Shown here: positions 10,959 to 52,969 of the stretch, piece after piece | Layout of the letters: each line of letters opens with the position of its first letter | Numbering within the stretch: position 1 is the first letter of the stretch | Virus record (IMG/VR): IMGVR_UViG_3300018939_000022 | Span: 1 to 53,703 of that record | DNA from: a virus | Lineage: Duplodnaviria > Caudoviricetes | Length of the DNA: 53,703 nucleotides | Direction: 5' to 3' (one strand) | The notes under the pieces: model-generated | Database searches by the model: none | What the model saw: the letters and a program-made list of their open reading frames with translations, nothing else | Told to the model about the DNA's origin: nothing | Position numbers and translations under genes: made by a program

Positions 10959-11006
10959 AAAAACGAAAAGCCGCAACCTGAACCTTCAAAGGTCAAGTTG
11001 CGACTT
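10959..11006 (-). terminator. Intrinsic terminator downstream of the tail-region moron
   Basis: Minus-strand stem (AAGTCGCAACTTGA...TCAGGTTGCGGCTT) followed by a T-rich tract. Confidence 0.55.
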
Positions 11007-11075
11007 ACAGCACAGCTAAGAGGTCGCCCCGCGGTAAGGCACAGCCAAGAGCGCGGTAGTGCTATACTAACACAA

Positions 11076-11807
11076 CTAGAACGCGGCGGCGGCGTTATTT
11101 TGATCCAAGCTCAAAGAATTTTGCCCTCCCCTGATCTCCACTGGCACATTCCAGATCGCAAAGCCCCGCCGCGTACCCGACATGCCGTAAACCCAATAAC
11201 GCCCCGGCGGCACGTCCGCAAACTGCGCGCGGCCTTGAAAGTCTGTGGTCACAGAGAATTTGGTGTGTGTTCTGACGGCAAATTCGGCAGCTTCAATCTG
11301 TGCGTCGCGTGAGGTGGGGTAGCGCGACCTGATCGCGTAAGTTGATAGCACGCCGATCCCGCCGTCGGCGCGTAGGCCGGCTGCACTCATCAACTTCTCG
11401 GCATCTTCGTCTAACAGGTGGAACTCAGTACGGGCGACGGGTTGGTTCCCGCCCATCTTGTAGATGATGCCGGCCTCTATCAAGAGCGTGCCGGAGGTAG
11501 GCTGCGCGGCCGTTGTGGGTGCTAGAACTGCGGGCCTGTCACCGAAGGAAATCGCCTCTATGTTTTCAAGAGGCAGTGCGAGCGGGCTGCCGGCGACTTC
11601 AAGATGCAAAGTCTTCGCGTCGGCGCGAGAGAACGTGCCCGTGACAGTCTCGCCGCCTTTCAACGCGACGGTTACTTTGTGCGACGGCGCGGGTTGTTCG
11701 GCTACTTGAGGTTGGGGGCGGGACGGCACACGGCCGCGGGGCTGGCCCTGCGCGAAACTGTGAATAGAGAGAACGGTTGTGAAAGCCGCGGCGAGTAGAT
11801 ATTTCAT
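11076..11807 (-). CDS. Secreted hypothetical protein (moron)
   Basis: Signal peptide MKYLLAAAFTTVLSIHSFA; Sm-like segment; C-terminal prealbumin-like motif TTDFQGRAQFADVPPGRY. Confidence 0.8.
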   Translation of the reverse strand: MKYLLAAAFTTVLSIHSFAQGQPRGRVPSRPQPQVAEQPAPSHKVTVALKGGETVTGTFSRADAKTLHLEVAGSPLALPLENIEAISFGDRPAVLAPTTAAQPTSGTLLIEAGIIYKMGGNQPVARTEFHLLDEDAEKLMSAAGLRADGGIGVLSTYAIRSRYPTSRDAQIEAAEFAVRTHTKFSVTTDFQGRAQFADVPPGRYWVYGMSGTRRGFAIWNVPVEIRGGQNSLSLDQNNAAAAF

Positions 11808-11816
11808 GGCGCGAGG

Positions 11817-12929
11817 TTACTCCTGATCTGATTCCGATGCTGACTCCGAGGATGGCAACTCCTTTTTCCCGGCTGCGCGCTCATAGAACGCAAGTAAACG
11901 CTTCATCTTGTCACCGTATTTGTAGATGTCGTTTAGAGAATCAATCGGTATCCGCTCCTCTTTCTTATTCTCATCGAAGATGCCAATCTGCTTGCGCGCC
12001 CGGTTGAAATGCAGGCGGGCTATCGGCTTGCGGTTGTTGTCGTCTAAGAGGATGCCCATGTAACTCTGCGTGTCGCGGTGGGCGATCCTGTCAGGATCGA
12101 CCTGCTCGCGCAAGATCGACTTGACGATGTAAAAGCCCTCCAACTCCTCCTCAGTGGTTACTACCAGCCCCCCGGCCTCTTCTGACTCTAGATCGTCCGA
12201 GACAGTCGGCGCGGCGTGTCCTGACATCGCAGACTTGAGCCTATAATCGATGCGTTCGTTGATGAGCTGATGGAAGCTCCGCGCCGTGATCTGTGCGAAG
12301 TATTCCCGCCGTCCTTGGGTTAGCGCGCCGTTGAACACCTTAGAGGCGCAGAACTTCACGAATTCGTCTGAGGGGTGCTCAAGTTGTTCGGCCAGCAGCC
12401 GCTTGATCTCGCGCGTGTACTTGAGATCGCCTGCCGTGGTCATCATCTCGTCCAAGTTGAAGGCGGGCTTGGTCAGCTTCTTTAACTCGCCAACGACCGT
12501 CTCGTTCAGGTCAAGCATATCGACCTCAAGGAATGGCTTCTCGTCCATCTTGTTCGGGGCTTCCAGATCGGTGAAGAAGCGGTACACCACGCCGTTCGTG
12601 AGCACCCCGATCTTGGCCTCGGTCGTCGCGAAGTAGCGGAACAGTTGTGAGGCGTGTTTGATATTGAGGTCTGCGCCACAATGCTTGACCTCGAATAGCA
12701 TTATGATTTGACCCTCTTTTTTAATCGCATAATCGACCTTCTCGCCTTTCTTGATGCCCACGTCCGCGATGAACTCCGGCACGACTTCCGTGGGGTCGAA
12801 GATGTCGTAGCCGAGAATCTGGATGAAGGGCATGACGAGGGCGTTCTTGGTCGCCTCTTCCGTCTGTAGCAGATCGCACAGCGCGGGAACTTTCGCGGCC
12901 AACGCTTTGAGGTGATCGATGAAGTCCAT
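11817..12929 (-). CDS. HsdR N-terminal-like (PD-(D/E)XK) restriction endonuclease family protein
   Basis: TEEATKNALVMPFIQILGYD...EKVDYAI...FEVK...QLFRYF...LTNG motifs typical of the prophage-associated HSDR_N family. Confidence 0.85.
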   Translation of the reverse strand: MDFIDHLKALAAKVPALCDLLQTEEATKNALVMPFIQILGYDIFDPTEVVPEFIADVGIKKGEKVDYAIKKEGQIIMLFEVKHCGADLNIKHASQLFRYFATTEAKIGVLTNGVVYRFFTDLEAPNKMDEKPFLEVDMLDLNETVVGELKKLTKPAFNLDEMMTTAGDLKYTREIKRLLAEQLEHPSDEFVKFCASKVFNGALTQGRREYFAQITARSFHQLINERIDYRLKSAMSGHAAPTVSDDLESEEAGGLVVTTEEELEGFYIVKSILREQVDPDRIAHRDTQSYMGILLDDNNRKPIARLHFNRARKQIGIFDENKKEERIPIDSLNDIYKYGDKMKRLLAFYERAAGKKELPSSESASESDQE

Positions 12930-13081
12930 CTTGTCCGCCTATCGTGAGTGAGATCGGAACGAGCCGGGGCGTGGATGCTACCAGATCGTGCTATAATCCT
13001 GCAAAAGAAATGCTCCCGCGCCGTGCCACCGGCCGAGAGCGTGGACGAACCGATTCCGGGTTAAAGAAGATCGATCCGACG

Positions 13082-14362
13082 ATGGATAGCTTATCACAAC
13101 CCATCACTGCACACCCTTCCCCTCTAACAGCGGCAAACTGTGAACAATGCGGGAAACCCTTCAAACCGCAGCCGCGTGGTAAGACTCGCGCACCCGCGCG
13201 CTTCTGCTCGCGGGCTTGTTACTACGCCGCAACGCCTCGCAGCCGCGAGATAAAAACTTGCCTAAAGTGCCAAGGGGAGTTTGAAGTTAAACAGAGTCAT
13301 GCCGAACGAAGGCGTTACTGCTCCTATGCATGCATGGGGGCGGCCTACAAAGAACAAACTGGCGCGGCTAACCACAACTTTAGAGGCCGCAAGCAGGAAT
13401 ACACTTGCGCGGCCTGCGGAGAGGTGTTCCAAAGCTATCCGTCCAGAAGTAAGAACCTTCGATTCTGTAGCCGTGAGTGCAGGGGGGCGGGAATAACTCT
13501 CACCTGTCAAGGCTGCGGCGTCATATACCGCAAGCCGCCCTCACGATCCGGTTCGCGCTATTGTAGTCAAACTTGCAAGCATAAGTTCGCGCGCACCAGT
13601 GCACCCTCTACCCCTCGAACAAAAGCCTGCGCACGTTGCGGAAAGTGCTTTCACGTTCCGCCCTCAGAATTTGCTAAGACTAAGTTTTGTTCTCACGCCT
13701 GCGCCTACCCACCCCGAACTATAAATTGTGAAACGTGCGGTAAGTTAATCAATCGGCCACGCCTCGCTCAAAGGTATTGCAATCGGGCTTGCGTGCCGAT
13801 CCGAAGTTTTGAGCGACCCTGCGATAGATGTGGGGAGTCATTTTTAGTGGAACCTTCGCAAGCTAATACTGCTCGGTTTTGTAGTCGAGATTGCCAAAAC
13901 CAACGAATATTAAAAGACTGTGCCTTTTGCGGGGCGATTATGGAAGTTGTTCCGACACGAGCTGATGTGCAGAGATTTTGCGATCTGAAATGCTATGCCA
14001 AATGGCAAAGCGTTTATAAAGTTGGCGAGAACAGCCCCTCTTGGACTGGCGGGAAGCGGGCTGCTTGGGCTAGAAGCCGCGTGCGACGTGGCGCGGCTAT
14101 AAAGGCAACAATCACTGAGAACATCAGTCGCACCCATGTGATATTAACTTACGGACACCACTGTTACATTTGCAATCGCGCCCTTACGCGAAGGGAAATA
14201 TCAATTGATCATGTAATCCCCCTATCTCGCGGGGGTAGCCACACCTTAGATAATCTTCGGGTATGCTGTAAGTCATGCAATTCTCGAAAGTACAATAGGT
14301 TACTCTCTGAGTTCGTCTCCCTACTCCCACTCGACTACTTCGCCCGCCGCGTCACCTCTTAG
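13082..14362 (+). CDS. HNH endonuclease with eight N-terminal CxxC...CxxxC zinc-finger repeats
   Basis: Eight repeats, then CYIC...DHVIPLSRGGSHTLDNLRVCCKSCNSRK; visibly more AT-rich; TGCTATAAT at 12989-12997. Confidence 0.9.
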   Translation: MDSLSQPITAHPSPLTAANCEQCGKPFKPQPRGKTRAPARFCSRACYYAATPRSREIKTCLKCQGEFEVKQSHAERRRYCSYACMGAAYKEQTGAANHNFRGRKQEYTCAACGEVFQSYPSRSKNLRFCSRECRGAGITLTCQGCGVIYRKPPSRSGSRYCSQTCKHKFARTSAPSTPRTKACARCGKCFHVPPSEFAKTKFCSHACAYPPRTINCETCGKLINRPRLAQRYCNRACVPIRSFERPCDRCGESFLVEPSQANTARFCSRDCQNQRILKDCAFCGAIMEVVPTRADVQRFCDLKCYAKWQSVYKVGENSPSWTGGKRAAWARSRVRRGAAIKATITENISRTHVILTYGHHCYICNRALTRREISIDHVIPLSRGGSHTLDNLRVCCKSCNSRKYNRLLSEFVSLLPLDYFARRVTS

Positions 14363-14570
14363 GCTCGACCGTGCACTCGGCGGCGATGTCGGCAATGGGC
14401 GGAAGCTCGTAGCCCGGTTGGGGCGTCAGTACCCACTTCACTTCAACGACTCGGCCCTTGCCGTGCTTCTGTAGCATGTAGTGGCTGACTGCTTCCATGA
14501 GTTCGTTAGAGTCTAGGGTGAACACTTCCACTGCGTGCCCCCCTTCGTGCCCGTTGCCACTTTCGCTCAT
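14352..14570 (-). CDS. Hypothetical protein
   Basis: Small ORF in late-operon orientation. Confidence 0.45.
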   Translation of the reverse strand: MSESGNGHEGGHAVEVFTLDSNELMEAVSHYMLQKHGKGRVVEVKWVLTPQPGYELPPIADIAAECTVEPKR

Positions 14571-14627
14571 GGCGCACAGGATAATTCTACCCAAACGGAA
14601 AGGGCAAGGGGCGGGCTACGCGAGGCG

Positions 14628-15227
14628 TCACAGCGGCCCCGCGTACTGCCGCATCAGCACGGGGAAATTATGCCGGTTGTACCCCTGCCTCTCGACTTCA
14701 AACCTCTTCTGATCAAACCTCACTTTATGCCATGTCTCGTCAACCGGGTCGAAAAGGAAAAAGGGTAAATGTAGCCTGTGGTGGGCGCGGAATGCATTGA
14801 ACTCTTCCCAATCAATCAGACTGCGGTTGACGGGCGCGGCTTCAAACCCGACAACGGCCGAGGAGTTTTTATACCTCACATTCGCCGTCACGCCGTCCTC
14901 GGCCAAGCTGACTAAAGCCGCCTCTTCATCGATCCTCTTGAAGCCCCAATTTAAAATTGTCGGAAACGTTCCGTAAACCGTGAGCGGGGCCGTGTCCTCT
15001 GCCGACCCCGCGTCCGTCGCCGTCACAGTCACCTGCCTGAACTCGTTCGCCACTTCGAGGTAAACGACCGTGAGGAAGTCCGTGCCGTTATAGACCGTGC
15101 GGGGGCTGTCGTCGGAGAGCAGCGTGCCGGAGTTGGCCGACCACACGGCGGGCACGTCCGAGGTGAACTGCGGGATCGGAATCTCGCCGTAGCGATGAAT
15201 ACTCTTGTTGGCGGTGATGTTCGGCAT
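14628..15227 (-). CDS. Minor tail protein (distal-tail / gpM-like C-terminus)
   Basis: Tail module position; aromatic-rich C-terminus resembling minor tail proteins. Confidence 0.55.
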   Translation of the reverse strand: MPNITANKSIHRYGEIPIPQFTSDVPAVWSANSGTLLSDDSPRTVYNGTDFLTVVYLEVANEFRQVTVTATDAGSAEDTAPLTVYGTFPTILNWGFKRIDEEAALVSLAEDGVTANVRYKNSSAVVGFEAAPVNRSLIDWEEFNAFRAHHRLHLPFFLFDPVDETWHKVRFDQKRFEVERQGYNRHNFPVLMRQYAGPL

Positions 15228-18519: not shown

Positions 18520-18813
18520 CTACCCCTTCACTTCTGCCTTCTTTGCGGCCTTCTTCGTCGCGCTGTTGTTCGCCTCTTCGTGGGCCTCGCCAGCCGCCTC
18601 GAACTCCCCTTCCCGGCCCTTAGCCCCGTAGGGGGCGACGCCGAAGCCGGTGATTGCCCCGCGCTCCGCGAGGCGGTCGCGCTGCGCCTTCGGCAGCTTC
18701 GAGACCTCGTCCTCGTCCGTCAGCGTGCGGGGCCGCCCCGTGATCCGGCCCTGTTCGTTTCGGACGGCGGGGACTCGCACCCCGCGCGTTACTTCTCTAG
18801 GGTCTTTCGGCAT
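18520..18813 (-). CDS. Small head-module protein
   Basis: GGAGGAG RBS, directly after the major capsid gene. Confidence 0.65.
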   Translation of the reverse strand: MPKDPREVTRGVRVPAVRNEQGRITGRPRTLTDEDEVSKLPKAQRDRLAERGAITGFGVAPYGAKGREGEFEAAGEAHEEANNSATKKAAKKAEVKG

Positions 18814-18824
18814 GACTCCTCCCG

Positions 18825-19874
18825 TTACACGCCTGCGTCAATGACCCAAACCCGCTGCTCGTCGGGGATGGGCATGGCGTTCAGTTGCGCCTCGATCCGA
18901 AGCTCGCGGCCCGTGATCTCCTCGTCGTAGAAGACCGTCACGCCCCGCGTGTCGATGCCGGCCTGCGGGAACTGGCGAACCAAGTCGTAGGCGCGCAGCA
19001 CGGGGACGAAGGCCGATGAGCCGATCCGGTTGTCCGCAGGCACGAAGGCGACGTTGCCGGCCTCAAACACCTTCGTCGAAGAGGTGGCCGTGCCGCCGTC
19101 CGTCGGCAGATCGACCGTGTCCTCGATGACGATGAACTCGAAGGGCGCACCGAGGTCGTCCTGCACGCGCTCGGCCAACTGCGCCCGCGTCATCTGCACG
19201 CCGTTGGCGAGGTCGGGCGCGTCGGCTTGGATCGCGCGCAGCGTGGCGAGGCGCAGCGCGACGCCGCGGCCCGCGCCGACCGCTTCGAGGCCGTCCTCGT
19301 ACCACGCGACCAGCTCGTCGTAGGCATTCACCCCGGCGTCGTCCCAGGCGGTCAAGGCCGTCGTGATGCGCGACGAGTCGATGCCGAACGAGGCGGCGAA
19401 GGTCTCGCCCGTCTGCGGGTGGCGCTGGGTGATTGAGCCGTTCAGCCACGCCTCGAACATGTCGAGTTCCAGCCGTCGGTAGTCCCCCAAGGCCATCTGA
19501 TCGACGCGAGAGGGGATGTCAACGGCCATCTCGCCCGCGACCAAAGCCTGATCGCCGTTGAAGCGCATCATCAGCTTCTGCATCTCCTCCTCGCCGATCA
19601 GGTCGTACATCTCAATCGGCACGATCTTGATCTGCCGGCGGGGCGGGATGCGCTTCGGGAGCAGTCGGCCGCGCTGGTTCCACTCGCGGCGGTCAGCCAC
19701 GGGGCGGAAGTCGAGCGTCGTCACGTCGTCCAAGGTCGTCGAGTTCACGTCCCGGCGGGGCATGAACCCGTTCCAGTAGAGCCGCCCCTGATCGGTGACG
19801 CTCTGCGCCTGAGCGCGCACCGTCAGCACGGCCGGGGACAGGTCTTCGATCTCCTCAATCCATGTCTTCGGCAT
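18825..19874 (-). CDS. Major capsid protein (lambda gpE-like)
   Basis: 349 aa; size, position and gpE-like segments. Confidence 0.85.
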   Translation of the reverse strand: MPKTWIEEIEDLSPAVLTVRAQAQSVTDQGRLYWNGFMPRRDVNSTTLDDVTTLDFRPVADRREWNQRGRLLPKRIPPRRQIKIVPIEMYDLIGEEEMQKLMMRFNGDQALVAGEMAVDIPSRVDQMALGDYRRLELDMFEAWLNGSITQRHPQTGETFAASFGIDSSRITTALTAWDDAGVNAYDELVAWYEDGLEAVGAGRGVALRLATLRAIQADAPDLANGVQMTRAQLAERVQDDLGAPFEFIVIEDTVDLPTDGGTATSSTKVFEAGNVAFVPADNRIGSSAFVPVLRAYDLVRQFPQAGIDTRGVTVFYDEEITGRELRIEAQLNAMPIPDEQRVWVIDAGV

Positions 19875-19899: not shown

Positions 19900-20307
19900 C
19901 TAGGTGCGGGTCAGGTGAATCTTCGAACCGGCTGCGTCGAAGGCGTCGATCTCGTCGGCCGTCAGAGGGCGCCCCAGGTTGTCCTCGATCACGTCGCGGT
20001 GCGCCGTCCCGATTGTCCCGACCGTGACGGGGAACGTGCCGGCGTTGGCGGCGAGCGAATCGTTGGTCGGGCCGTCGGCGACAATCTTGACGGCCTCCAG
20101 GTTGACGCCGTAGAGCACGTCCCCCGCGCCCACCGTGTCGCCCGTCTTCTGGAAGGGCACGCCCGGCTTGAGCCGGCCGTCGGCGTCCACCTCGCCCGTG
20201 GTCAGATCGGAGATGTCCACGAAGACAACGTCCGTGGCGAGGACTTCCAGCATCGGGTAGCCGTACTGCGTGTCCTCCGCCTGCAACTCCGTGATTTGGA
20301 TCGGCAT
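19900..20307 (-). CDS. Head decoration protein
   Basis: 135 aa between scaffold and capsid genes, LKPGVP motif. Confidence 0.75.
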   Translation of the reverse strand: MPIQITELQAEDTQYGYPMLEVLATDVVFVDISDLTTGEVDADGRLKPGVPFQKTGDTVGAGDVLYGVNLEAVKIVADGPTNDSLAANAGTFPVTVGTIGTAHRDVIEDNLGRPLTADEIDAFDAAGSKIHLTRT

Positions 20308-20325
20308 CGGTCTCTACTCCTCTTT

Positions 20326-21060
20326 TCAGGCCGCGGCCTGTCGCTTGAAGACGGGGTTCATGTCGTCAGCCTGCTTGCCCTGATCGGCCTTCGCCGCTTC
20401 GCGCGTGCGCTTGAAAACGTCAGCCGGAGGCGCACCGCCCCCCGGCGTCGAACCCGGAACCCTCACCCCGCCCCGCTGCTCCGACGAGAGCGCCGGCAGC
20501 AGATCGGACAGCTCCGGCGTGGACTTCACCACATCCGCGAAGGGCCGCTCGACAAAGCTGTTGTCGCCCTGTTTAACCTTGGCGACGACCTCTTTCTTCC
20601 CGTCTTTGCCGTCGCGGACTTCAAGGGTCGAGAAGTCGTAAACTTTGGTCGCCAGCCGGGCGGTCTTTTCCTTGTCCCACCCCATCACCGCGCCGACCGA
20701 GTGCGCGTGCGCGGCGGCCTCTGCCGCTTCGGCCGTGGTCTTGTAGTTGTCGCGCTCGGTCTTCAAGGTGTTGAAGTCTTCGGGCTTCGTGATGCCCGCC
20801 GCCTTGACCGCCACGGCGAGATCGTGATCTGCCTTGGGGACGGCGACGTGGCCGTGCGGGATGACCTTGGCGGCGGCGAGCGCGCCCTTCGCCTCGTCAC
20901 GCTCCCGCTCTGCGGTCTGCTTCTCCGTGACGAGCTGGCGGTTGTTCGAGAGGACGGGATGATCGTCCGAGAGTTCGGGGACGTAGCGGCCCCCGACGAG
21001 TTTGTAGTGCTCGCGCAGTGCCTCCGGCACGTCGTCGAGCTTGTCGTAGATTTTCAGCAT
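20326..21060 (-). CDS. Capsid scaffolding protein
   Basis: LDDVPEALREHYK N-terminus, coiled coil, Gly/Pro tail; ATG 21060 with GGAG RBS. Confidence 0.75.
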   Translation of the reverse strand: MLKIYDKLDDVPEALREHYKLVGGRYVPELSDDHPVLSNNRQLVTEKQTAERERDEAKGALAAAKVIPHGHVAVPKADHDLAVAVKAAGITKPEDFNTLKTERDNYKTTAEAAEAAAHAHSVGAVMGWDKEKTARLATKVYDFSTLEVRDGKDGKKEVVAKVKQGDNSFVERPFADVVKSTPELSDLLPALSSEQRGGVRVPGSTPGGGAPPADVFKRTREAAKADQGKQADDMNPVFKRQAAA

Positions 21061-21106
21061 CGGTCTCCGCCTGTTGCTGCTCCCGCGCTCCGGCGAGGTT
21101 GGCTGG

Positions 21107-21141
21107 AAAAAGAAAAAGCCCGCGCTCGAAAGCGACGGGCT
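21107..21141 (-). terminator. Intrinsic terminator upstream of the scaffold gene
   Basis: AGCCCGTCGCT TTCG AGCGCGGGCT followed by TTTTCTTTTT. Confidence 0.7.
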
Positions 21142-21189
21142 GTAAGGCCAAGTCACTAACAAACGCGGGCGGGATGTGAATCCAAACCC

Positions 21190-21393
21190 TTATGCTTTTA
21201 TCAAATCACAGAGGTCGTCGAGTTCGTCTTGCAGGGTGTTGAACCGACGGCGCAGATCAAGGATGCGCGCCTTGACTTCCGGCGGAATGTTAGCACACTT
21301 TTCGCGGTCTGCGGGCGTGCCAGGGAATTTTTTTTCGCCCGCCTTGACCACCCTAATCGGCTGTCGGTGTGCGCTCACGGCTTCACAGAACAT
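21190..21393 (-). CDS. Hypothetical protein
   Basis: 67-aa ORF coupled to its neighbour. Confidence 0.45.
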   Translation of the reverse strand: MFCEAVSAHRQPIRVVKAGEKKFPGTPADREKCANIPPEVKARILDLRRRFNTLQDELDDLCDLIKA

Positions 21394-21574
21394 CCTTCGA
21401 GGGTTCGGGTACGATCTCTAAACCGATGCCCTCGATCTCGATCTTGGCGGTAGTCAACGATTCTTCCTGATTAAACGTCCACTCGATTGACAACACGCCC
21501 TCCACCTCGCCGCCCCCGTCCGCGACGAGTTTCGTACCCTTGCGCGTGCCGTCAGAGATGATCTGAAGTTTCAC
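21383..21574 (-). CDS. Hypothetical protein
   Basis: GTG start with GAGGGGG RBS. Confidence 0.5.
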   Translation of the reverse strand: MKLQIISDGTRKGTKLVADGGGEVEGVLSIEWTFNQEESLTTAKIEIEGIGLEIVPEPSKDVL

Positions 21575-21575
21575 G

Positions 21576-21845
21576 CTATCGCCCCCTCGCCCCCTCGCCC
21601 GTGCGGTCGTCAACCGGGGGCGGCGGCACTACCCTCACCGCTTCCCCCTCCTTCGCGATCCTCTTCAGTTCGGCAGATTTAAGGGGATCAACCCACTTCT
21701 CTCTAGCACGGTCGGGATACAAGTAGATGAATCGGATGATTCTCAACGTGCGCTTTTCTATTTGCCGCGCGCGTTCTCTTGAAACGCCAAGAACCTCTCC
21801 GACTTCGCGCAGGGTTTTACCGCCCATGCGCAGTGAATAAACCAC
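21576..21845 (-). CDS. Sigma-70 region-4-like HTH protein
   Basis: TLREVGEVLGVSRERARQIEKR is the classic region 4.2 motif. Confidence 0.75.
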   Translation of the reverse strand: MVYSLRMGGKTLREVGEVLGVSRERARQIEKRTLRIIRFIYLYPDRAREKWVDPLKSAELKRIAKEGEAVRVVPPPPVDDRTGEGARGR

Positions 21846-21906
21846 TCGTAGCGGCTTTGCCTCATAAGCCCTTTTTGCCTCATAAGTCGGCGGGCTGCCT
21901 CAAAAG

Positions 21907-22104
21907 TCACGCCGCAGCCTTTCCGCTTCGTCGCCTCTTAGGTTCAGGGAAAGGCACTCCGCTATCCCTGAAATGCTCGAAAGAGCGGACGGACTTTTTG
22001 AGCGCGGCGATCTGCCTCTTGGCTTCCGCGATAGCCTCATCCCACTTGCTTAAATTTTTTTCCCCCGATTTGCTTAAAGTTGTGGACGCAGTTGTATTTT
22101 TCAT
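21907..22104 (-). CDS. Small coiled-coil hypothetical protein
   Basis: AAGGAG RBS; divergent from the 22131 gene. Confidence 0.6.
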   Translation of the reverse strand: MKNTTASTTLSKSGEKNLSKWDEAIAEAKRQIAALKKSVRSFEHFRDSGVPFPEPKRRRSGKAAA

Positions 22105-22130
22105 GTATGCTCCTTCCGTTGGAGGTGGTT

Positions 22131-22733
22131 ATGAGCAGCGACTACTGGAAAGAAGTTCTGACGACCGCAAAGGTAAGACTCTCCGAGTTGCGCGCGAGGC
22201 GCGACGAACTCGACGCGGAGCGTGAGGAAGTCAACCTCGAAATAGTGCAGTTGGAGCAGGTCGTGACGAACCTCTCGCCGCTGGTGGCTGAGCGCGCGCA
22301 AAGCCCGCTGATCTACAGCCTCATGTCCCCGCTTCCTACGAACCTCGCCGATGCCTGCCGTGAAGTTCTCAGGCAAGTCAAAAAGTACATGACCCCGATT
22401 GAGATTCGGAACACGCTTGCCGCAAGCGGGTATGACCTTAGCCAGCACAACAACCCGCTCGCGAGCATCCACGGCATTCTTAAGCGGTTGGCGGAGAGCG
22501 GCGAGGTCGAGGCACTCACACACGATCTCAAAGGTACTATGTATAGCTGGAAGAGTACGGGCGGCGTTCGCGTCCCCGGCTCGACCCCCAGTTCGGGTAC
22601 GCCCTACGACTTGCTGCCGCAGCGTCCCGCGAAGCCCGGACACCGCGCAGACCCGCCTCCCGCCGAAGGGCGAGGGCCTCTGAGGCGTCTGCCGCTGCCG
22701 CCTAAAGATAAAGAGGGGAAGAAAAGGGAATGA
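22131..22733 (+). CDS. Coiled-coil plus winged-helix protein
   Basis: GGAGGT RBS; N-terminal heptads, then LADACREVL...MTPIEIRNTL...LASIHGILKRL wHTH pattern. Confidence 0.8.
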   Translation: MSSDYWKEVLTTAKVRLSELRARRDELDAEREEVNLEIVQLEQVVTNLSPLVAERAQSPLIYSLMSPLPTNLADACREVLRQVKKYMTPIEIRNTLAASGYDLSQHNNPLASIHGILKRLAESGEVEALTHDLKGTMYSWKSTGGVRVPGSTPSSGTPYDLLPQRPAKPGHRADPPPAEGRGPLRRLPLPPKDKEGKKRE

Positions 22734-22749
22734 TGAGGAATTAGTTAAC

Positions 22750-22843
22750 GGGGGTCTGGGTGAGTGGTTTAAACCACTGGTCTGAGAAGCCAGCGACGGT
22801 GCTACCACACCGTCCGTCCGTTCAAATCGGACGACCCCCGCCA
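22750..22843 (+). tRNA. Class II tRNA, anticodon GAG (Leu) on a tRNA-Ser-type body
   Basis: Acceptor stem GGGGGTC/GACCCCC; D-arm GGT..GG..ACC; anticodon arm CTGGT-CTGAGAA-GCCAG; 7-bp variable stem; T-arm GTCCG-TTCAAAT-CGGAC; G73 and encoded CCA. Confidence 0.92.
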
Positions 22844-22970
22844 ACTTAGCAGCCACGGCGGAAGCGGTAACTTCCGCCGTGGCATTCAACCACACAGCCG
22901 AAGCTATGCGGCCTAAGCATCCGAAATTATAGCTTGACGCTGTGTGTTCACCAAGTGAGGAACACACGCC

Positions 22971-23225
22971 ATGTCCATCCGCGAACAGAAGGCCCGCCAG
23001 ATCATCGAGCGCGCCAACATCACCCGCAACGGCAACCTCTGGCTTGTCCCTTCCCAGTCGGGACGCGGACGCTACAAAGTTGACGCTGAGAAGCGAAGCT
23101 GCTCCTGCCCTGACTACGACTTTCGCCGCCAGCCCTGCAAGCACATCTTCGCCGTCGAGTTGATCGTCAAGCGCGGTACGATTGAAGATGTTAAATACGG
23201 AAAGACTTGGAAGCATGTTGACTAG
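22971..23225 (+). CDS. SWIM zinc-finger protein (possibly a truncated transposase N-terminus)
   Basis: CSCPDY...PCKH SWIM motif; GAGG RBS; TTGACG upstream. Confidence 0.75.
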   Translation: MSIREQKARQIIERANITRNGNLWLVPSQSGRGRYKVDAEKRSCSCPDYDFRRQPCKHIFAVELIVKRGTIEDVKYGKTWKHVD

Positions 23226-24895
23226 GCGGCCTGCTGCGCGCCCCTCTTCTCACCCGCCGCCGAACTGTCCGGCCTTTCGGAACTGTCGGGCGCGGCCGGC
23301 GTCCCCGTAAGCTGACTCATCCTGACTCGCGCCGCTTCAATCAGTGTGTTTTCTTGATCGGTGTCCTCTACGCCCGTGGCGCGCTGCACCCGCTCTTTAG
23401 ACCAGACCCCCTTCTCCCACAGCGAGACGTACATCGTGACCTCTTCGGGCGTGACAGGCCCCGTGTCTATCCGGCAGTCGGCGTTGGCGCGCAGGGAGTC
23501 GAACCGTCCCGGCTGGCCTGAGAGCGTGGCGGCCATCGCCAGCACGGTTTCGAGCGCCCACCGGCACGCGGCGTCCACCTCGCCCTTCGTCGGGTTCAGG
23601 GAGAGGGCGAAGCCCCCGCGCGCCTGAACCCTTGAAACGCCCGTGGCCTGCGCGTCCCCCGCAATCAGCGTGTGAACCTGCTTGGACTCTTCGAGTATGT
23701 CCCGGTAGTCGGCCCGCTCGCTCCCGATGAACACGTCCACAGGCGACGGCTCACTCCGCTCGATGTAGGGCTGCTCGACGTGCTCCTTGCCTTCCCCGTC
23801 AGTCCACCTGAACCCCGTCCACGCATTGATGACGGGCGGGCCGCGCTTGATCGGGTCGGGCACGAATTTCTGTGAGCCGTCCGGTTGGGTTACGATCTTG
23901 CCGGGCAGATCGACGTTCAGGAGCGTCGTCTCGGCGAAGCCGGCGGTGTTGAGGTTGTGCCCCCTTAAGGTCTTGGCCTTGTTGAGCTGCTTGTTGCTCT
24001 GGACGATCTGCGGCGTGATGAAGGGCTTGCGCCGCATCTCGTAGATGAGCAGACGCCCGCCCAGGTCGAACGTGGCCGGCTCCGCGTCGGCCTCCCGCCG
24101 GGGCGTGGCGGAGAAAATCGACTGGTAGCTCGATTGTGGCGTGTACGGAACGGCCGGGTTGTTCTCATCCCTCAATACCTTCCAGACGGTCTCCTTCGCG
24201 TCGTTCAGGTAAGTTATCTCTGCGACTTCCTCCTCGCCGTCTTTGACCGCGAACACCCCGGCCTGGCGTCGGCTGTACGGGTCGGTCAGCACCGTGGCCT
24301 GATCGTAGGGCAGGGCCTCGACGAAGATTTTCTCTAAGGACTCTTCCAGCGGGGCGGTAGGGATCATCCCATTTTCCCCGACCTCTGCCGGCGGAATGAA
24401 GAGGCGCATCGGTGCGCGGGTCGTCTTGAGCAGCGTCTCGGTCGCGTCCTGAAAGACCTTCAGCATCCGCCGCTCGTTCCACCACACGGTCAGCGCGGCC
24501 TGCGCCTCCCGGATTAGGGCCTGCTCCTTTTCGTTCGGCTTCTCGTCCTCCGTGAGTTCGCGCCCGTCTAGGATTTCACCTTTCTTCGCCAGCGGCCTGC
24601 GGACGGTCAATGCCCACTCGATCTCGCGGCTCACCACCCCGTCGCGGTGGCCGTCCGTGATGTCGCGCACGGCGTTCTTGCTGGCGAACTCCTTTTCGAC
24701 CTTGTCGTAAGACGCCGGGTTGTTGCGGTCGCCGTCGGCCGGCTGCGGCCCCGTCCAGAATCGGCCTTTGTCGAAGTGCTCGCCGTCGTAGAAGAGGAGG
24801 TTGTCGGCCGCGCCCCACTTGTCGGCCTCTTTCTTGGCCCCCGTGACGGCCTCGGCTATCTGGCGGCGGGTCAACGTGTCGAATTGGATTCTCAT
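23222..24895 (-). CDS. Portal protein
   Basis: About 557 aa right after TerL with ATGA overlap; FYDGEHF N-terminal motif. Confidence 0.85.
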   Translation of the reverse strand: MRIQFDTLTRRQIAEAVTGAKKEADKWGAADNLLFYDGEHFDKGRFWTGPQPADGDRNNPASYDKVEKEFASKNAVRDITDGHRDGVVSREIEWALTVRRPLAKKGEILDGRELTEDEKPNEKEQALIREAQAALTVWWNERRMLKVFQDATETLLKTTRAPMRLFIPPAEVGENGMIPTAPLEESLEKIFVEALPYDQATVLTDPYSRRQAGVFAVKDGEEEVAEITYLNDAKETVWKVLRDENNPAVPYTPQSSYQSIFSATPRREADAEPATFDLGGRLLIYEMRRKPFITPQIVQSNKQLNKAKTLRGHNLNTAGFAETTLLNVDLPGKIVTQPDGSQKFVPDPIKRGPPVINAWTGFRWTDGEGKEHVEQPYIERSEPSPVDVFIGSERADYRDILEESKQVHTLIAGDAQATGVSRVQARGGFALSLNPTKGEVDAACRWALETVLAMAATLSGQPGRFDSLRANADCRIDTGPVTPEEVTMYVSLWEKGVWSKERVQRATGVEDTDQENTLIEAARVRMSQLTGTPAAPDSSERPDSSAAGEKRGAQQAA

Positions 24896-26088
24896 CCCGA
24901 ATGCACCCCGCTGAATGACTTGGTGATCTGCGGCTCGCGCGGCAGACTCAGCCACTCCGTGCCGTACCGCCCGCCGTCAATGGCGTGGTTGTCGAAGTCA
25001 ATCACCTCGTCCAAAATCTGCCCGGTTTTCTTATCCTTTTTCCAACTGTAACGCTTGGCCTCTCGCAATAGGTTTGCGCTGCCTTCGTGGATTCGGAGCG
25101 GCCTCGACTTCACGCGATCAATACTGGCCTTGACAGAACCCGGCCCTTTATACGCGCCCACGATCTTGAAGCCCGCGCGCCGTATCTCTTCAATGGTTTT
25201 CGGCTCAGCCGAGTCTGCGACGATGTATGAGGTTGCGAGTTCGGGGATTTCCTTCAACTTCTCTATCAGATCGGCTGTGGTTAATTTTGTTTGGTATAGC
25301 ATCTCACGCCAGTACAACTCGGCGTCATACAGCCGCGTTTCCGTTAGCGCGGTCGGCTCGTTGTAGCCGAAGTCCAAGCCGTAGGCGGCTGCACCCTTGC
25401 CATGGGGGTAGGCGGCATCCGTGACGGTTTTCCAGTGGGTGAAGACCCGCGTAGAACCCGAACCTATCTCTCCGAGTCCGTAAACCTTCCAGTAATCCTC
25501 GTCCACGTCGCGCAGCCTTTCGATCTCAGAGACAAGCGACTCCTCAAGAAACGGGTTGTCTCTGTAGGTGGTCACACACAGTTCGCTGTCGTCGCGCATT
25601 TCCACCTGATCGTAAATCCAAGAGAACGGGTCAGACGGGTTGTAGTCTAAGACGATCTTGTCGGTCGTTCTGAGGGCCAACTGCCGGAATGACTCAAGCT
25701 CATTCTCGTTGGCCTCGTTCAAGAACAAGACGTTGCGCTTGCGCCCCCTCACCCGCTCTGCCTGATCCACTCCGATGAACTCGAAGAGGTTGGAGCCTAA
25801 CTGATACTCGTTATTGCTTTTGTTGTGGCTCGACTCCCGGTATAAATCCAGACGGTTTAGAATCTCGAAGAAGTCGCGCATGGCGGACGCGCGGAGGGCA
25901 GGCAGAGTGTTTCGCGCGACCGTGCAGACTTCCCCCTGCGCGAGTCGCGCCCACACGAGAATGAGAAACAATAGGACGTTGTAGGTCTTCCCCGAACGAG
26001 TGCCGCCGCGCAAAGATGTGATTCGCGCGCGGGACTTGTTCAAGACGCGGAAGACCTTATTCGTCCGAATCTCCATTCGAGTCAACAA
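24892..26088 (-). CDS. terL: Terminase large subunit (PBSX/SPP1-type)
   Basis: Walker A GGTRSGKT, LFLNEANE, DYNPS, GLDFGY, DNHAIDGGRY. Confidence 0.95.
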   Translation of the reverse strand: MLTRMEIRTNKVFRVLNKSRARITSLRGGTRSGKTYNVLLFLILVWARLAQGEVCTVARNTLPALRASAMRDFFEILNRLDLYRESSHNKSNNEYQLGSNLFEFIGVDQAERVRGRKRNVLFLNEANENELESFRQLALRTTDKIVLDYNPSDPFSWIYDQVEMRDDSELCVTTYRDNPFLEESLVSEIERLRDVDEDYWKVYGLGEIGSGSTRVFTHWKTVTDAAYPHGKGAAAYGLDFGYNEPTALTETRLYDAELYWREMLYQTKLTTADLIEKLKEIPELATSYIVADSAEPKTIEEIRRAGFKIVGAYKGPGSVKASIDRVKSRPLRIHEGSANLLREAKRYSWKKDKKTGQILDEVIDFDNHAIDGGRYGTEWLSLPREPQITKSFSGVHSG

Positions 26089-51267: not shown

Positions 51268-51483
51268 GTGAGTCATATGGGTGCGGGTGAGTTGGCGGGG
51301 GTCATAGACGCCGCCCTTGAAATTTCCGAGCGGGAGGAGGAAGATGCCCGGCACATCCTCAAGCTCCTGCGTTCGGGCCGAGACTCGGAAGCCTTGGAGC
51401 GTACCAAGGAATTTCTCAAAGAATACTACGGGGGCGGTGATGACGCAGAATCGCGTGATAGAACTCATCCGGGTGTCCACTGA
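51268..51483 (+). CDS. Small protein overlapping the integrase start (possible recombination directionality factor)
   Basis: Position only. Confidence 0.4.
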   Translation: MSHMGAGELAGVIDAALEISEREEEDARHILKLLRSGRDSEALERTKEFLKEYYGGGDDAESRDRTHPGVH

Positions 51484-52969
51484 GGAGCAGGCCGCGGACT
51501 CCCGCGCGTCTATACCCTCGCAGCGGGCCGTCAACCGCGAGACCGAGCGCCGGTACGGCCTGACCATAGTGCGCTCGGTTAAGTTCTGGGACGTGTCCGG
51601 CACGTCCGTTCTGCTCTCGCCGGAAGTCCAGGAGGTCTTGCGCCTCATGGAAAGCCCGGACATCCACGGCGTCGTCGCCCGCGAATTCTCCCGCGTGATG
51701 AGGCCCGAAAACTACGCCGATTTTGCGCTGTTGCAAGCCTTCGTTGACACCCGCACGCTGCTTTATTTGCCGGACGGCCCGATAGATTTCGCCAGCAGAT
51801 CGGGCCGGATGCTGGGGACGATGCAGGCCGTATGGGCGGGCATCCAGCGGATCGACTTCTTGGAGTTAACTTGGAATGCCAAGGAGCAAATGCGCGGCCG
51901 GGGGCAGAACGCCAACGGCCGCGCGTGTCTGCCCCTCGGGGTCAGCTACGATCCCGCGTCGGGCTTCCGCTACACGCCCGACGCGGAGAAGGTACGGGAC
52001 GCCGTCCGCCTGATGCTGGCCGGCAACCTCAGCTACCGTGACGTTGGCCGGCGGGTCGGCGTCAACGAGAACACCCTGAAGGGGGCGGTCAGGAACCCGA
52101 TTTACAAGGGCTGGCGGGTGATAGACAAGAAGCGCGATCCTTCCCCGCAGGCGAAGCGCGTCCGGCCGGACGGCAGGCAGGGCGACCGGCCTAAAATCCC
52201 GCGCCCGGCGCACGAGGTGATCCGCGTCAGGGTCATCGACGAGCCTTTAATTTCGGAGGCCGAGTTCGACCGCCTGCAAGTGATGCTCGACGCCAAGAGG
52301 CGGGCGCATTGGAAAACCGACCCCGGATACCTGCTGACCTACAACGGCCTGCTGTTTTGCACCTGCGGCCAAATCTACTACGCCAAAAGAGTCCGGTGCG
52401 GCTACTACCGCTGCCGGGGGCGGGCGGAACTGAAGACCCAATGCCGCGCCCCCTACATGCGGCGCGACCTCTTGGACTCGGCGCTTGACCGCCTCTTCGC
52501 GGAGCGGCTGACCGACCGGGGCTTTTTAACGGAGGCGGCGAAGGAGCTGGCCCGCCGCTCCGCGCAGCCGGACGCGGGCCGGGCGGAGAGGCTGCTCAGG
52601 CAGTTGGACTCGCTCTCGGCGCGCCGCGAGAGAATCCTGGACGCCTACTTCAACGAGGGACTCATCACGCCCGCGGAGAGGGACGAGAGGCTGCGGGTGG
52701 TGGACGCGGAGTTGACTACCACGCGCTCGTCTCTGGAGGGCGGGCGACCCGCGCCGGAGGTGTCGGCCAGAACGCTCGCCAGCCTGTTCCGACCCTTCCG
52801 CCGGTTCGCACAACTCCCGCGGCCCGCGAAGCGGAAGTTGCTCCTGGCGCTCGCGCCGGAAGTCCGAGTGCGCGACTATCGGGTGGAGAGTCTGGGGCTG
52901 AGGTGGGGCGGGAGCAGCGTCCACCGCACAGCGGCCACTACGGCAACTGGGCGCCCAACCCCGCGATGA
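51440..52969 (+). CDS. Large serine recombinase (integrase)
   Basis: IRVSTEEQ catalytic Ser, DVSG, SRVMR, recombinase domain NPIYKG, zinc ribbon CTCG...YYRC, coiled coil. Confidence 0.95.
   Translation: MTQNRVIELIRVSTEEQAADSRASIPSQRAVNRETERRYGLTIVRSVKFWDVSGTSVLLSPEVQEVLRLMESPDIHGVVAREFSRVMRPENYADFALLQAFVDTRTLLYLPDGPIDFASRSGRMLGTMQAVWAGIQRIDFLELTWNAKEQMRGRGQNANGRACLPLGVSYDPASGFRYTPDAEKVRDAVRLMLAGNLSYRDVGRRVGVNENTLKGAVRNPIYKGWRVIDKKRDPSPQAKRVRPDGRQGDRPKIPRPAHEVIRVRVIDEPLISEAEFDRLQVMLDAKRRAHWKTDPGYLLTYNGLLFCTCGQIYYAKRVRCGYYRCRGRAELKTQCRAPYMRRDLLDSALDRLFAERLTDRGFLTEAAKELARRSAQPDAGRAERLLRQLDSLSARRERILDAYFNEGLITPAERDERLRVVDAELTTTRSSLEGGRPAPEVSARTLASLFRPFRRFAQLPRPAKRKLLLALAPEVRVRDYRVESLGLRWGGSSVHRTAATTATGRPTPR

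Follow-up and report, generated by a model that had tools for sequence, protein, structure and literature searches.

Results

A decapeptide shared by two genes of a prophage head region

We analyzed a stretch of 53,703 nucleotides of viral DNA (Duplodnaviria, Caudoviricetes; IMG/VR record IMGVR_UViG_3300018939_000022) that we call the window. The window is a prophage. In its head module the gene order is portal, scaffold-position gene, a 135-aa open reading frame (ORF), and capsid gene, and this order is the same in 23 related phage loci. The scaffold-position gene (20326..21060, minus strand) is predicted to encode a protein 244 aa long that starts MLKIYDKL and has a folded part (residues 1-191), a disordered linker, and C-terminal helices. 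Between the portal and scaffold genes is an island of lower G+C content (21853..23225). On its plus strand is a gene (22131..22733) predicted to encode a protein of 200 aa, starting MSSDYWKE, with a coiled coil (residues 3-52), a winged-helix domain (72-140), and a disordered tail (141-200). The subject of this study is a ten-residue peptide, GGVRVPGSTP, that is found in both of these proteins.

Both copies were located where a first-pass annotation of the window had placed them. One is at residues 197-206 of the scaffold-position protein (20443..20472, minus strand), in the linker that follows the residues LLPAL, and the other is at residues 144-153 of the winged-helix protein (22560..22589, plus strand). 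Codon alignment of the two copies showed that 21 of 30 nucleotides and two of ten codons are the same and that all of the differences are synonymous. The codons thus appear independent, suggesting that the peptide was kept at the protein level and not by recent copying of DNA. This is what the annotation had claimed from the eight synonymous codon changes.

Six-frame translation of the genome (371 contigs, 4.97 Mb) revealed exactly two occurrences of GGVRVPGSTP, 2.1 kb apart, and its 7- and 8-residue cores likewise occur twice each. It is also the sole word of 9 or 10 residues common to any two ORFs in the window (622 six-frame ORFs of at least 50 aa). After residue shuffling of these ORFs, 7-mers were shared 24 times and 8-mers 2.7 times on average, and extrapolation from the shuffles leads to an expectation of approximately 0.03 shared 10-mers by chance. 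Taken alone, the match in the window is suggestive of a non-chance origin without being decisive.

The label "scaffold" that we use here is based on gene position between the portal and capsid genes of the head module, a helical structural model, and neighbors in the language-model feature space of the Atlas. These neighbors include "phage scaffold" and DUF6651 at 0.94 and are leads only. The gene had no Pfam or PHROG match that would place it in a described scaffold family, and none of 58 family members matched PF06810 (Phage_scaffold) or DUF6651 (PF20356) at E ≤ 1. The family profile had 0 hits among PDB sequences, and a Foldseek comparison of the model with PDB returned nothing at E ≤ 0.001.

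Homologues of both families carry matching variants

The case for mimicry becomes decisive because homologues of both families carry matching variants of the motif. The winged-helix family has 3040 representative clusters at E ≤ 1e-3. The first homologue search returned 37 homologues of the winged-helix protein and 154 of the scaffold, the latter at E ≤ 1e-3. From 110 winged-helix family entries we obtained 57 distinct tails after dropping entries with unparsable anchors, duplicates, and a locus from an unpublished genome. These tails were compared with 144 distinct scaffold homologues for exact shared words. A word of at least 7 residues was shared with a scaffold by 11 of the 57 tails and a word of at least 8 residues (8-14) by 8 of them, while 46 shared nothing beyond 6 residues.

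The longest shared words were ETVRVPGGTSGKAG (14 residues) and STGTRVPGSTGG (12 residues). These were followed by GGVRVPGSTP and RVPGSTGGGG (10 residues), GGTRVPGST and LPAHGAGGG (9 residues), and GTQFVKQP and PGGTSGKA (8 residues). The 14-residue word is in the tail of P0122 and in scaffold P0003, and the 12-residue word is in the tail of P0128 and in scaffold P0014, with the shorter GTRVPGSTGG also in scaffolds P0011 and P0013. The tail of P0130, GTPLPAHGAGGG, corresponds to ...LPAHGAGGG and ...LPSHGAGGG in scaffolds P0008 and P0039, respectively, and GTQFVKQP is found in the tail of P0133 and in the scaffold of locus L086 (genome G119). One scaffold, P0016 (GTKVLGSAPGS), resembles two tails, TRILGSAPGS in P0126 and GTKVLGS in P0129. 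The tail TRYIAQDAG of P0134 pairs with AYVRQDAGG in scaffold P0007. By these comparisons there are at least six motif variants that are matched between the winged-helix and scaffold families. The first-pass annotation had proposed co-variation of the motif in homologues as a check, and at the family level this check was positive.

Three kinds of controls did not reproduce these matches. In 20 shuffles of the scaffolds, between 0 and 2 tails had a shared 7-mer and none had a longer word. When the 140-aa head domains of the winged-helix proteins were compared with the real scaffolds, the longest shared word was 7 residues. Against 120 real capsid homologues (42,022 aa), no tail shared a word longer than 7 residues, and one tail reached that length. 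Consistent with the exact matches, a profile-profile alignment of 16 scaffold-like tails with the scaffold alignment placed the tails on scaffold residues 192-211 (E 1.6e-4). The DNA encoding the matched motifs was 54-80% identical in six cross-locus tail/scaffold comparisons and the window pair, with 1-5 codons the same per 6-10 codons for identical residues. Codons differ as they would under independent choice, which argues against recent copying between matched pairs.

We also searched for the motif elsewhere. No other ORF in the 23 phage loci shares a word of more than 6 residues with the last 95 residues of the scaffold. GTQFVKQP occurs once in G119, in the scaffold itself. In genome G149, a search with an RVPGST pattern found the winged-helix gene and one antisense hit inside a methyltransferase-like ORF; four further matches did not read RVPGST, and reversed-pattern controls gave 2+2 matches.

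Tail variants recur on distant head lineages

In a tree of the head domains, the window protein falls in a 13-member clade (support 98) in which 12 members have scaffold-like tails of at least five variants. The same variants are also found on distant heads: GTPLPAHGAG is shared by P0130 and L039/L041, and GTKV[LF]GS by P0129 and L037. Approximately unbiased (AU) tests rejected a single clade for these same-variant groups (p 8e-4 and 6e-11). Motif variants are patchy in the scaffold tree as well. The recurrence of variants on distant heads, together with their patchy distribution among scaffolds, suggests that the peptide behaves as a swappable specificity cassette.

These results bear on whether the shared peptide is functionless, either a chance match or a neutral relic of scaffold genes having recombined illegitimately with the transposon-like element that carries the winged-helix gene (see below). 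Within the window alone the shared 10-mer is only about 30-fold unexpected, the composition is biased toward Gly, Ser, Thr, and Pro, and the element does insert beside scaffold genes, as in the window. Set against this are the eight tails with exact matches of 8-14 residues, compared with none in the three kinds of controls. Every match is in frame and occupies the same position behind the wing, synonymous sites are randomized while the peptide is kept, and the same variants recur on unrelated head lineages. We therefore regard a functionless origin as extremely improbable.

The tails of more distant family members (P0278-P0414, L009-L031) have recurrent peptides of their own, including [FT]KHSPLK[YW]IGQR, ITGFSGV, AKLKLETFAPT, VPTxE[DE], and GLGSLRQ, and nearly all of these tails end in a Lys-rich tip such as KKKD or GKKRE. 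The recurrent distant peptides had no match in 24 phage loci and one off-frame match in the genome.

The motif lies in predicted flexible segments of both proteins

In the AlphaFold2 (AF2) model of the scaffold (predicted local distance difference test score, pLDDT, of 85.7), the motif lies in the sole low-confidence stretch, between the body (residues 1-191) and the C-terminal helices (214-243). The pLDDT is 50-65 over the motif and below 50 at residues 204-209. Among scaffold homologues, a variable peptide occupies this place after a conserved LLPALK and before a conserved helix. Its general shape is G-[TV]-x-hydrophobic-[PH] followed by a Gly/Ser-rich stretch. The AF2 model of the winged-helix protein (pLDDT 81) has a 50-residue helix and a helix-helix-helix-strand-strand topology. 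The elements of a winged-helix fold are present with pLDDT values of 93-98: helices at residues 72-83, 89-98, and 109-123 and strands at 126-131 and 135-140. The motif starts three residues after the last wing strand in this model, and in homologues the variable peptide follows the invariant "...MYRWK" at the end of the wing. Because low-confidence, non-helical segments adjoin well-folded domains in both predicted models, the two copies of the motif are likely to be exposed linear peptides.

The annotation had proposed that the peptide is a capsid-targeting or protease-site motif. A disordered short linear motif fits with docking and mimicry. The protease-site option is unsupported since no prohead protease was found in the prophage among 12 genes scanned with Pfam and 48 scanned with PHROGs. 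A broader form of that option is that both proteins are substrates of one phage or host enzyme that processes, modifies, or degrades them at the shared site. The motif is exposed, disordered, and rich in Gly, Ser, Thr, and Pro in both proteins, as such a site could be, yet the same scans yielded no other candidate enzyme either, and a conserved host enzyme would not need at least six sharply different matched variants within one bacterial family. This makes a shared enzyme site very unlikely.

The head domain of the winged-helix protein differs from its tail in conservation. In 35 aligned homologues, residues N108, L110, A111, I113, H114, and L117-R119 in the region of the recognition helix are invariant, and the tails vary widely. 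This pattern fits with a conserved nucleic-acid target and a variable ligand-binding tail. For this domain, HARE-HTH (PF05066) scored below the Pfam gathering threshold (17.6 bits versus a cut-off of 25.9, E 0.005), and PF05066 is carried by 14% of the members of one Atlas cluster neighboring the winged-helix protein. The structure neighbors FUR and PadR fell below the Atlas bar, and the only hits of the winged-helix profile among PDB sequences were to coiled coils (geminin and Rad50, E 0.003-0.6).

A second conserved element comes after the scaffold-like motif in the tail of the window protein (22590-22733) and of many close homologues, with the form G-x-G-[GH]-DP-[PKQ]-P or PGHRADPPP. It resembles the forms GHGDPPS and GVGDPPDG found in the motif region of distant scaffolds (L087 and P0025).

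The winged-helix gene belongs to a transposon-like module

The winged-helix gene does not belong to the phage. Comparison of gene neighborhoods places it in a conserved transposon-like module that is found mostly in chromosomes without this phage. Besides the gene for the coiled-coil/winged-helix protein, the module contains a 65-aa ORF, a tRNA gene whose anticodon varies, and a gene for a SWIM-DDE transposase. The island has a G+C content of 0.57-0.58 compared with about 0.66 on both flanks, and its DNA is homologous to other winged-helix loci from about position 21853 to 23158. The 65-aa ORF (21907..22104, minus strand) is divergent from the winged-helix gene with start codons 26 bp apart. 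Members of its cluster are present upstream and on the opposite strand in 26 of 34 winged-helix loci. The upstream DNA is conserved. A SWIM protein is encoded downstream in 25 of the 34 loci. In the window, this position is occupied by an 84-aa ORF (22971..23225, plus strand; SWIM E 1.5e-9) that stops at the stop codon of the portal gene (577 aa; 23222..24955, minus strand), which forms the right flank of the island. All five full-length relatives tested contained SWIM and DDE_Tnp_1 domains and were about 430 aa long. Judged by these relatives, the 84-aa ORF is a remnant of a SWIM and DDE_Tnp_1 transposase of roughly 430 aa. The copy of the module in the window is degenerate and lacks an intact two-domain transposase.

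Other boundaries and signals were sought within the island. A repeat search found no terminal inverted repeats, and a scan for promoters and terminators found nothing above shuffled sequences. PADLOC found no credible defense family among the island genes, the best hit, which covered the coiled coil, being JetC (E 0.0084). In a second assembly of the probable source run, positions 20300-24000 were in one piece with no difference. The junctions of the island are therefore unlikely to be an assembly artefact, although both assemblies come from the same run and are not independent data. Among sequencing runs, the stretch was found only in the probable source run, and no RNA run was listed.

The module was not seen in related phages. 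None of the 23 related phage loci contained a winged-helix gene, the 65-aa ORF, or a SWIM gene, and a scan of IMG/VR with the winged-helix alignment gave 39 pattern matches of which 0 were confirmed. Within 10 kb on either side of the winged-helix homologues there was no scaffold homologue except in the window's own genome. Four loci were flanked by cellular genes (a class I tRNA synthetase, an ECF (extracytoplasmic function) sigma factor, a two-component system, and dehydrogenases), and 9 of 10 flanking genes tested at these four loci matched cellular Pfam families.

These distributions bear on the possibility that the motif is an encapsidation signal that brings a DNA-binding protein into the procapsid with the scaffold, to be delivered with the DNA. 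Internal proteins of phage T4 have a comparable signal, the capsid targeting sequence, which is an N-terminal peptide of approximately ten residues that directs them to the scaffolding core and is removed by the prohead protease. The likeness is in a peptide of about ten residues that would direct unrelated proteins to a scaffolding core. The motif in the window is internal, and the protease that would release such cargo was not among the genes scanned in the prophage. The tail does match the scaffold of the phage that carries the gene at 10 of 10 residues, and the winged-helix gene and tRNA are intact while the transposase is a stub, which hints at retention by the phage. Against this, the family was not found in phage contigs by the scans above and most copies are chromosomal. 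We consider this role distinctly unlikely.

Tandem modules were observed at two loci: L007 (7216-8578 and 10636-11998) and L054 (8772-11792 and 11906-15444). The repeat unit in L007 (89% identical) starts within the 3' end of the tRNA and extends over the transposase, suggesting that the end of the insertion sequence overlaps the tRNA. In L054, each tandem unit starts with a small gene for an XRE-type helix-turn-helix protein.

The module tRNAs have variable anticodons on similar backbones

The tRNA gene of the window (22750..22843, plus strand) begins 17 bp after the winged-helix stop codon. ARAGORN called it Leu(GAG), and it matched Rfam RF00005 at 52.5 bits. It has G73, an encoded CCA, and a long variable arm. 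G73 and CCA are also found in tRNA-Ser of the genome, unlike its tRNA-Leu, which has A73. A tRNA lies within 5-54 bp after the winged-helix ORF in 24 of 30 loci, and these tRNAs combine similar backbones with differing anticodons. The module tRNAs (L001-L070) form a few groups of near-identical backbone, all ending in ...G-CCA, and the class II types among them have a long variable arm. Their anticodons include Leu GAG, TAA, and TAG, Tyr GTA, Trp CCA, Arg CCG, Ala TGC, Thr, and the stop-reading TTA. The tRNAs of L057 (Leu TAG) and L058 (Arg CCG) are nearly identical outside the anticodon stem-loop. The module tRNAs are possibly missense or nonsense suppressors.

Similar tRNAs have been described in Acidobacteria. 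According to Mukai et al. (2017, PMC5389517), acidobacterial allo-tRNAs have long variable arms and many anticodons, lie beside transposon-related genes and toxin-antitoxin loci, and may act in missense or nonsense suppression or as regulatory RNAs. The module tRNAs share with them a long variable arm, a Ser-like discriminator, and many anticodons on one backbone. They differ in that the window tRNA (22750-22840 in the Rfam alignment) has a 7-bp acceptor and a 5-bp T stem, whereas allo-tRNAs are 8/4 or 9/3. No winged-helix neighbor is mentioned in the sections of that paper that describe these tRNAs. Elsewhere in G000, contig C40 contains at least eight tRNA genes on one strand at about 13010-14150 (Glu, four Leu, two Ser, and Tyr), several of them unusually long, and this array may be a phage- or element-borne cluster.

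Other features of the window

The annotation had pointed to RGVRVP near the N-terminus of another head gene. This sequence is present at residues 10-15 of a 97-aa protein encoded after the capsid gene (18520..18813, minus strand), but it is a motif that this protein family has at its N-terminus in its own right, and it does not track the scaffold variant. In 10 related loci, the small proteins after the capsid gene have a recurrent G[VI]-x-[VI] core with Arg at x in about half, and the Pro of RGVRVP was restricted to the window and L103. In the six-frame translation of the genome there are 20 occurrences of GVRVP. We therefore rejected RGVRVP as a third copy. Members of this small family (L085-L105) have an N-terminus of the form M(A/P)KDNR-x-I-x-x-G[VI]x[VI] and a central ...G-x-[IL]-[TE]-G-[DN]-[WF].

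The prophage also contains genes for a serine integrase (51317-52969), TerL (24892-26088), a helicase, a primase-like protein, and methyltransferases. The portal gene adjoins TerL; it matched no Pfam or PHROG family, and its relatives were detected by tblastn in 18 of the 23 related phage loci. Three small ORFs lie on the minus strand between the island and the scaffold gene (21190-21845). One encodes an 89-aa protein with sigma-70 region 4 only (21576-21845), and a relative of another, of 76 aa (21383-21613), lies ahead of the scaffold gene in L094, for which reason these ORFs seem to be phage morons outside the island. A second stretch of low G+C content (0.54-0.58) is in the tail region (11000-15000) and contains a phrog_4225 endonuclease (11817-12929) and ORFs with no family.

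Discussion

We tentatively favor the explanation that the decapeptide belongs to a family-wide mimicry in which a docking peptide of the scaffold is imitated, probably so that the assembly of capsids can be sensed or engaged. The parts of this explanation differ in strength. The mimicry of the scaffold is very probably real and under selection. Binding of the tail to the partner of the scaffold is reasonably likely. A specific role as a phage-sensing switch is possible but doubtful.

A candidate for this partner is the major capsid protein, which is lambda gpE-like (18825..19874, minus strand; phrog_29, with homologues that carry PF03864). We propose that the winged-helix tail would occupy the docking site that the scaffold linker motif uses during procapsid assembly, most probably on this capsid protein and possibly on the scaffold. 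Once capsid protein is made by a phage of the matching scaffold type, it would bind next to the wing and take the regulator off its DNA. Release of the regulator would then couple expression of the co-oriented tRNA and transposase to late infection. A complex prediction for the capsid protein (alignment A3) with tail residues 134-200 gave a score of 0.00 twice, in runs made without controls, and speaks neither for nor against binding.

Several observations weigh against this explanation. Of the 401 genomes of the family, 18 (including the unpublished G397) contain winged-helix homologues and 12 contain scaffold homologues, and G000 alone contains both. Thus, the co-variation shown is one between the two protein families, with G000 providing the sole same-genome pair. 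In a set of 137 more distant representatives with 87 parsable tails, 0 tails shared a word of at least 8 residues with the scaffolds. Scaffold-like tails are therefore limited to near relatives, and mimicking this scaffold is not the general function of the family. The same-variant groups used for the AU tests were chosen after the tree had been viewed. No operator can be claimed because the conserved GCTTAAA repeats upstream of the winged-helix gene also encode the 65-aa ORF. An element protein that binds the assembly machinery of its own host phage could also harm that phage. There are also differences in position from known scaffolds. The capsid-binding element of the P22 scaffold is at the extreme C-terminus. 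The same is described for the 80alpha scaffold in the sections of Dearborn et al. (2017, PMC5644958) that treat it, while the motif in the window is about 40 residues before the end.

An alternative is that the winged-helix protein is a pseudo-scaffold. A coiled-coil dimer with two motifs would compete on the capsid protein and derail or remodel procapsids, either to defend the host and element or to hijack capsids for the element. In its predicted structure, a coiled coil with a flexible motif resembles a minimal scaffold. The matched variants and swappable, patchy cassettes are as in an arms race, and most copies are in chromosomes without this phage. There is also a precedent in CpmB of the Staphylococcus aureus pathogenicity island (SaPI) SaPI1, which shares an RIIK motif with the 80alpha scaffold, the two competing for one site on the capsid protein (PMC5644958, in the sections noted above). 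However, interference would need no almost invariant winged-helix domain, no credible defense family was identified by PADLOC, and the element, with a length of about 1.4-3 kb, falls far short of what would fill a capsid. In the sole case of co-residence, a degenerate element inside a prophage whose scaffold its tail matches 10/10, interference would amount to self-harm. A pseudo-scaffold is unlikely given these points.

An invariant winged helix beside a hypervariable tail fits better with a regulator that has a variable ligand than with a pure poison of assembly. Co-residence with an exactly matching phage counts against a simple anti-phage role. Together, the regulator-like architecture and this co-residence lead us to favor the phage-sensing switch over its rivals.

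To our knowledge, copying of scaffold peptides by mobile elements is known only from a few satellite-helper pairs such as CpmB/80alpha. A literature search that did not cover supplements found no description of scaffold/winged-helix mimicry. CpmB and the winged-helix protein are alike in that a protein of a mobile element that is not a phage shares a short motif with a phage scaffold. As described in the relevant sections of PMC5644958, CpmB and the 80alpha scaffold are both helical dimers with a flexible end. The winged-helix protein is likewise encoded by an element distinct from the phage. The differences are considerable. No DNA-binding domain is described for CpmB in those sections, and the winged-helix protein has an invariant winged helix (72-140). 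RIIK is at the extreme C-terminus in a helix-and-hook, whereas the motif in the window is internal and disordered (144-153 of 200). The carrier of CpmB is a packaged satellite of roughly 15 kb, and the carrier here is a transposon-like module. Here, many variants are matched across two families, and any competition with the scaffold is hypothetical.

SaPI repressors of the Stl type are released from DNA by binding a helper-phage protein, and different alleles recognize different phage proteins. By analogy, a phage protein would serve as the inducer for the DNA-binding regulator of the element described here, and different alleles would respond to different phage proteins. Stl-type repressors recognize phage proteins via folded domains and are not known to copy a phage peptide, and derepression in the system described here is a proposal.

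In its most extended form, our explanation would make the winged-helix family transposon-borne sensors with exchangeable decoy tails that each copy the assembly peptide of one phage. Once the capsid machinery captured the tail, the regulator would be released, and the Ser-like tRNA with its foreign anticodon, the transposase, or both would be switched on. The phage would thereby trigger mistranslation or a jump of the element into its genome, and the window would be the fossil of a jump into a recognized phage. We consider this full chain of events quite unlikely.

Copying of a scaffold peptide is seen here between two large uncultured families that have at least six variants in common. Together with the tail variants on unrelated head lineages and the patchy scaffold motifs, it points to a specificity code that links elements of soil Acidobacteria with their phages. 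It offers a defined peptide of 10-15 residues for probing an unclassified scaffold family and a candidate route by which a transposon could detect a specific phage. The variable-anticodon tRNAs of Acidobacteria may also gain a functional setting in this way. Should the tails prove to be sensors with individual ligands, further phage targets could be indicated by the other peptides that recur in them.

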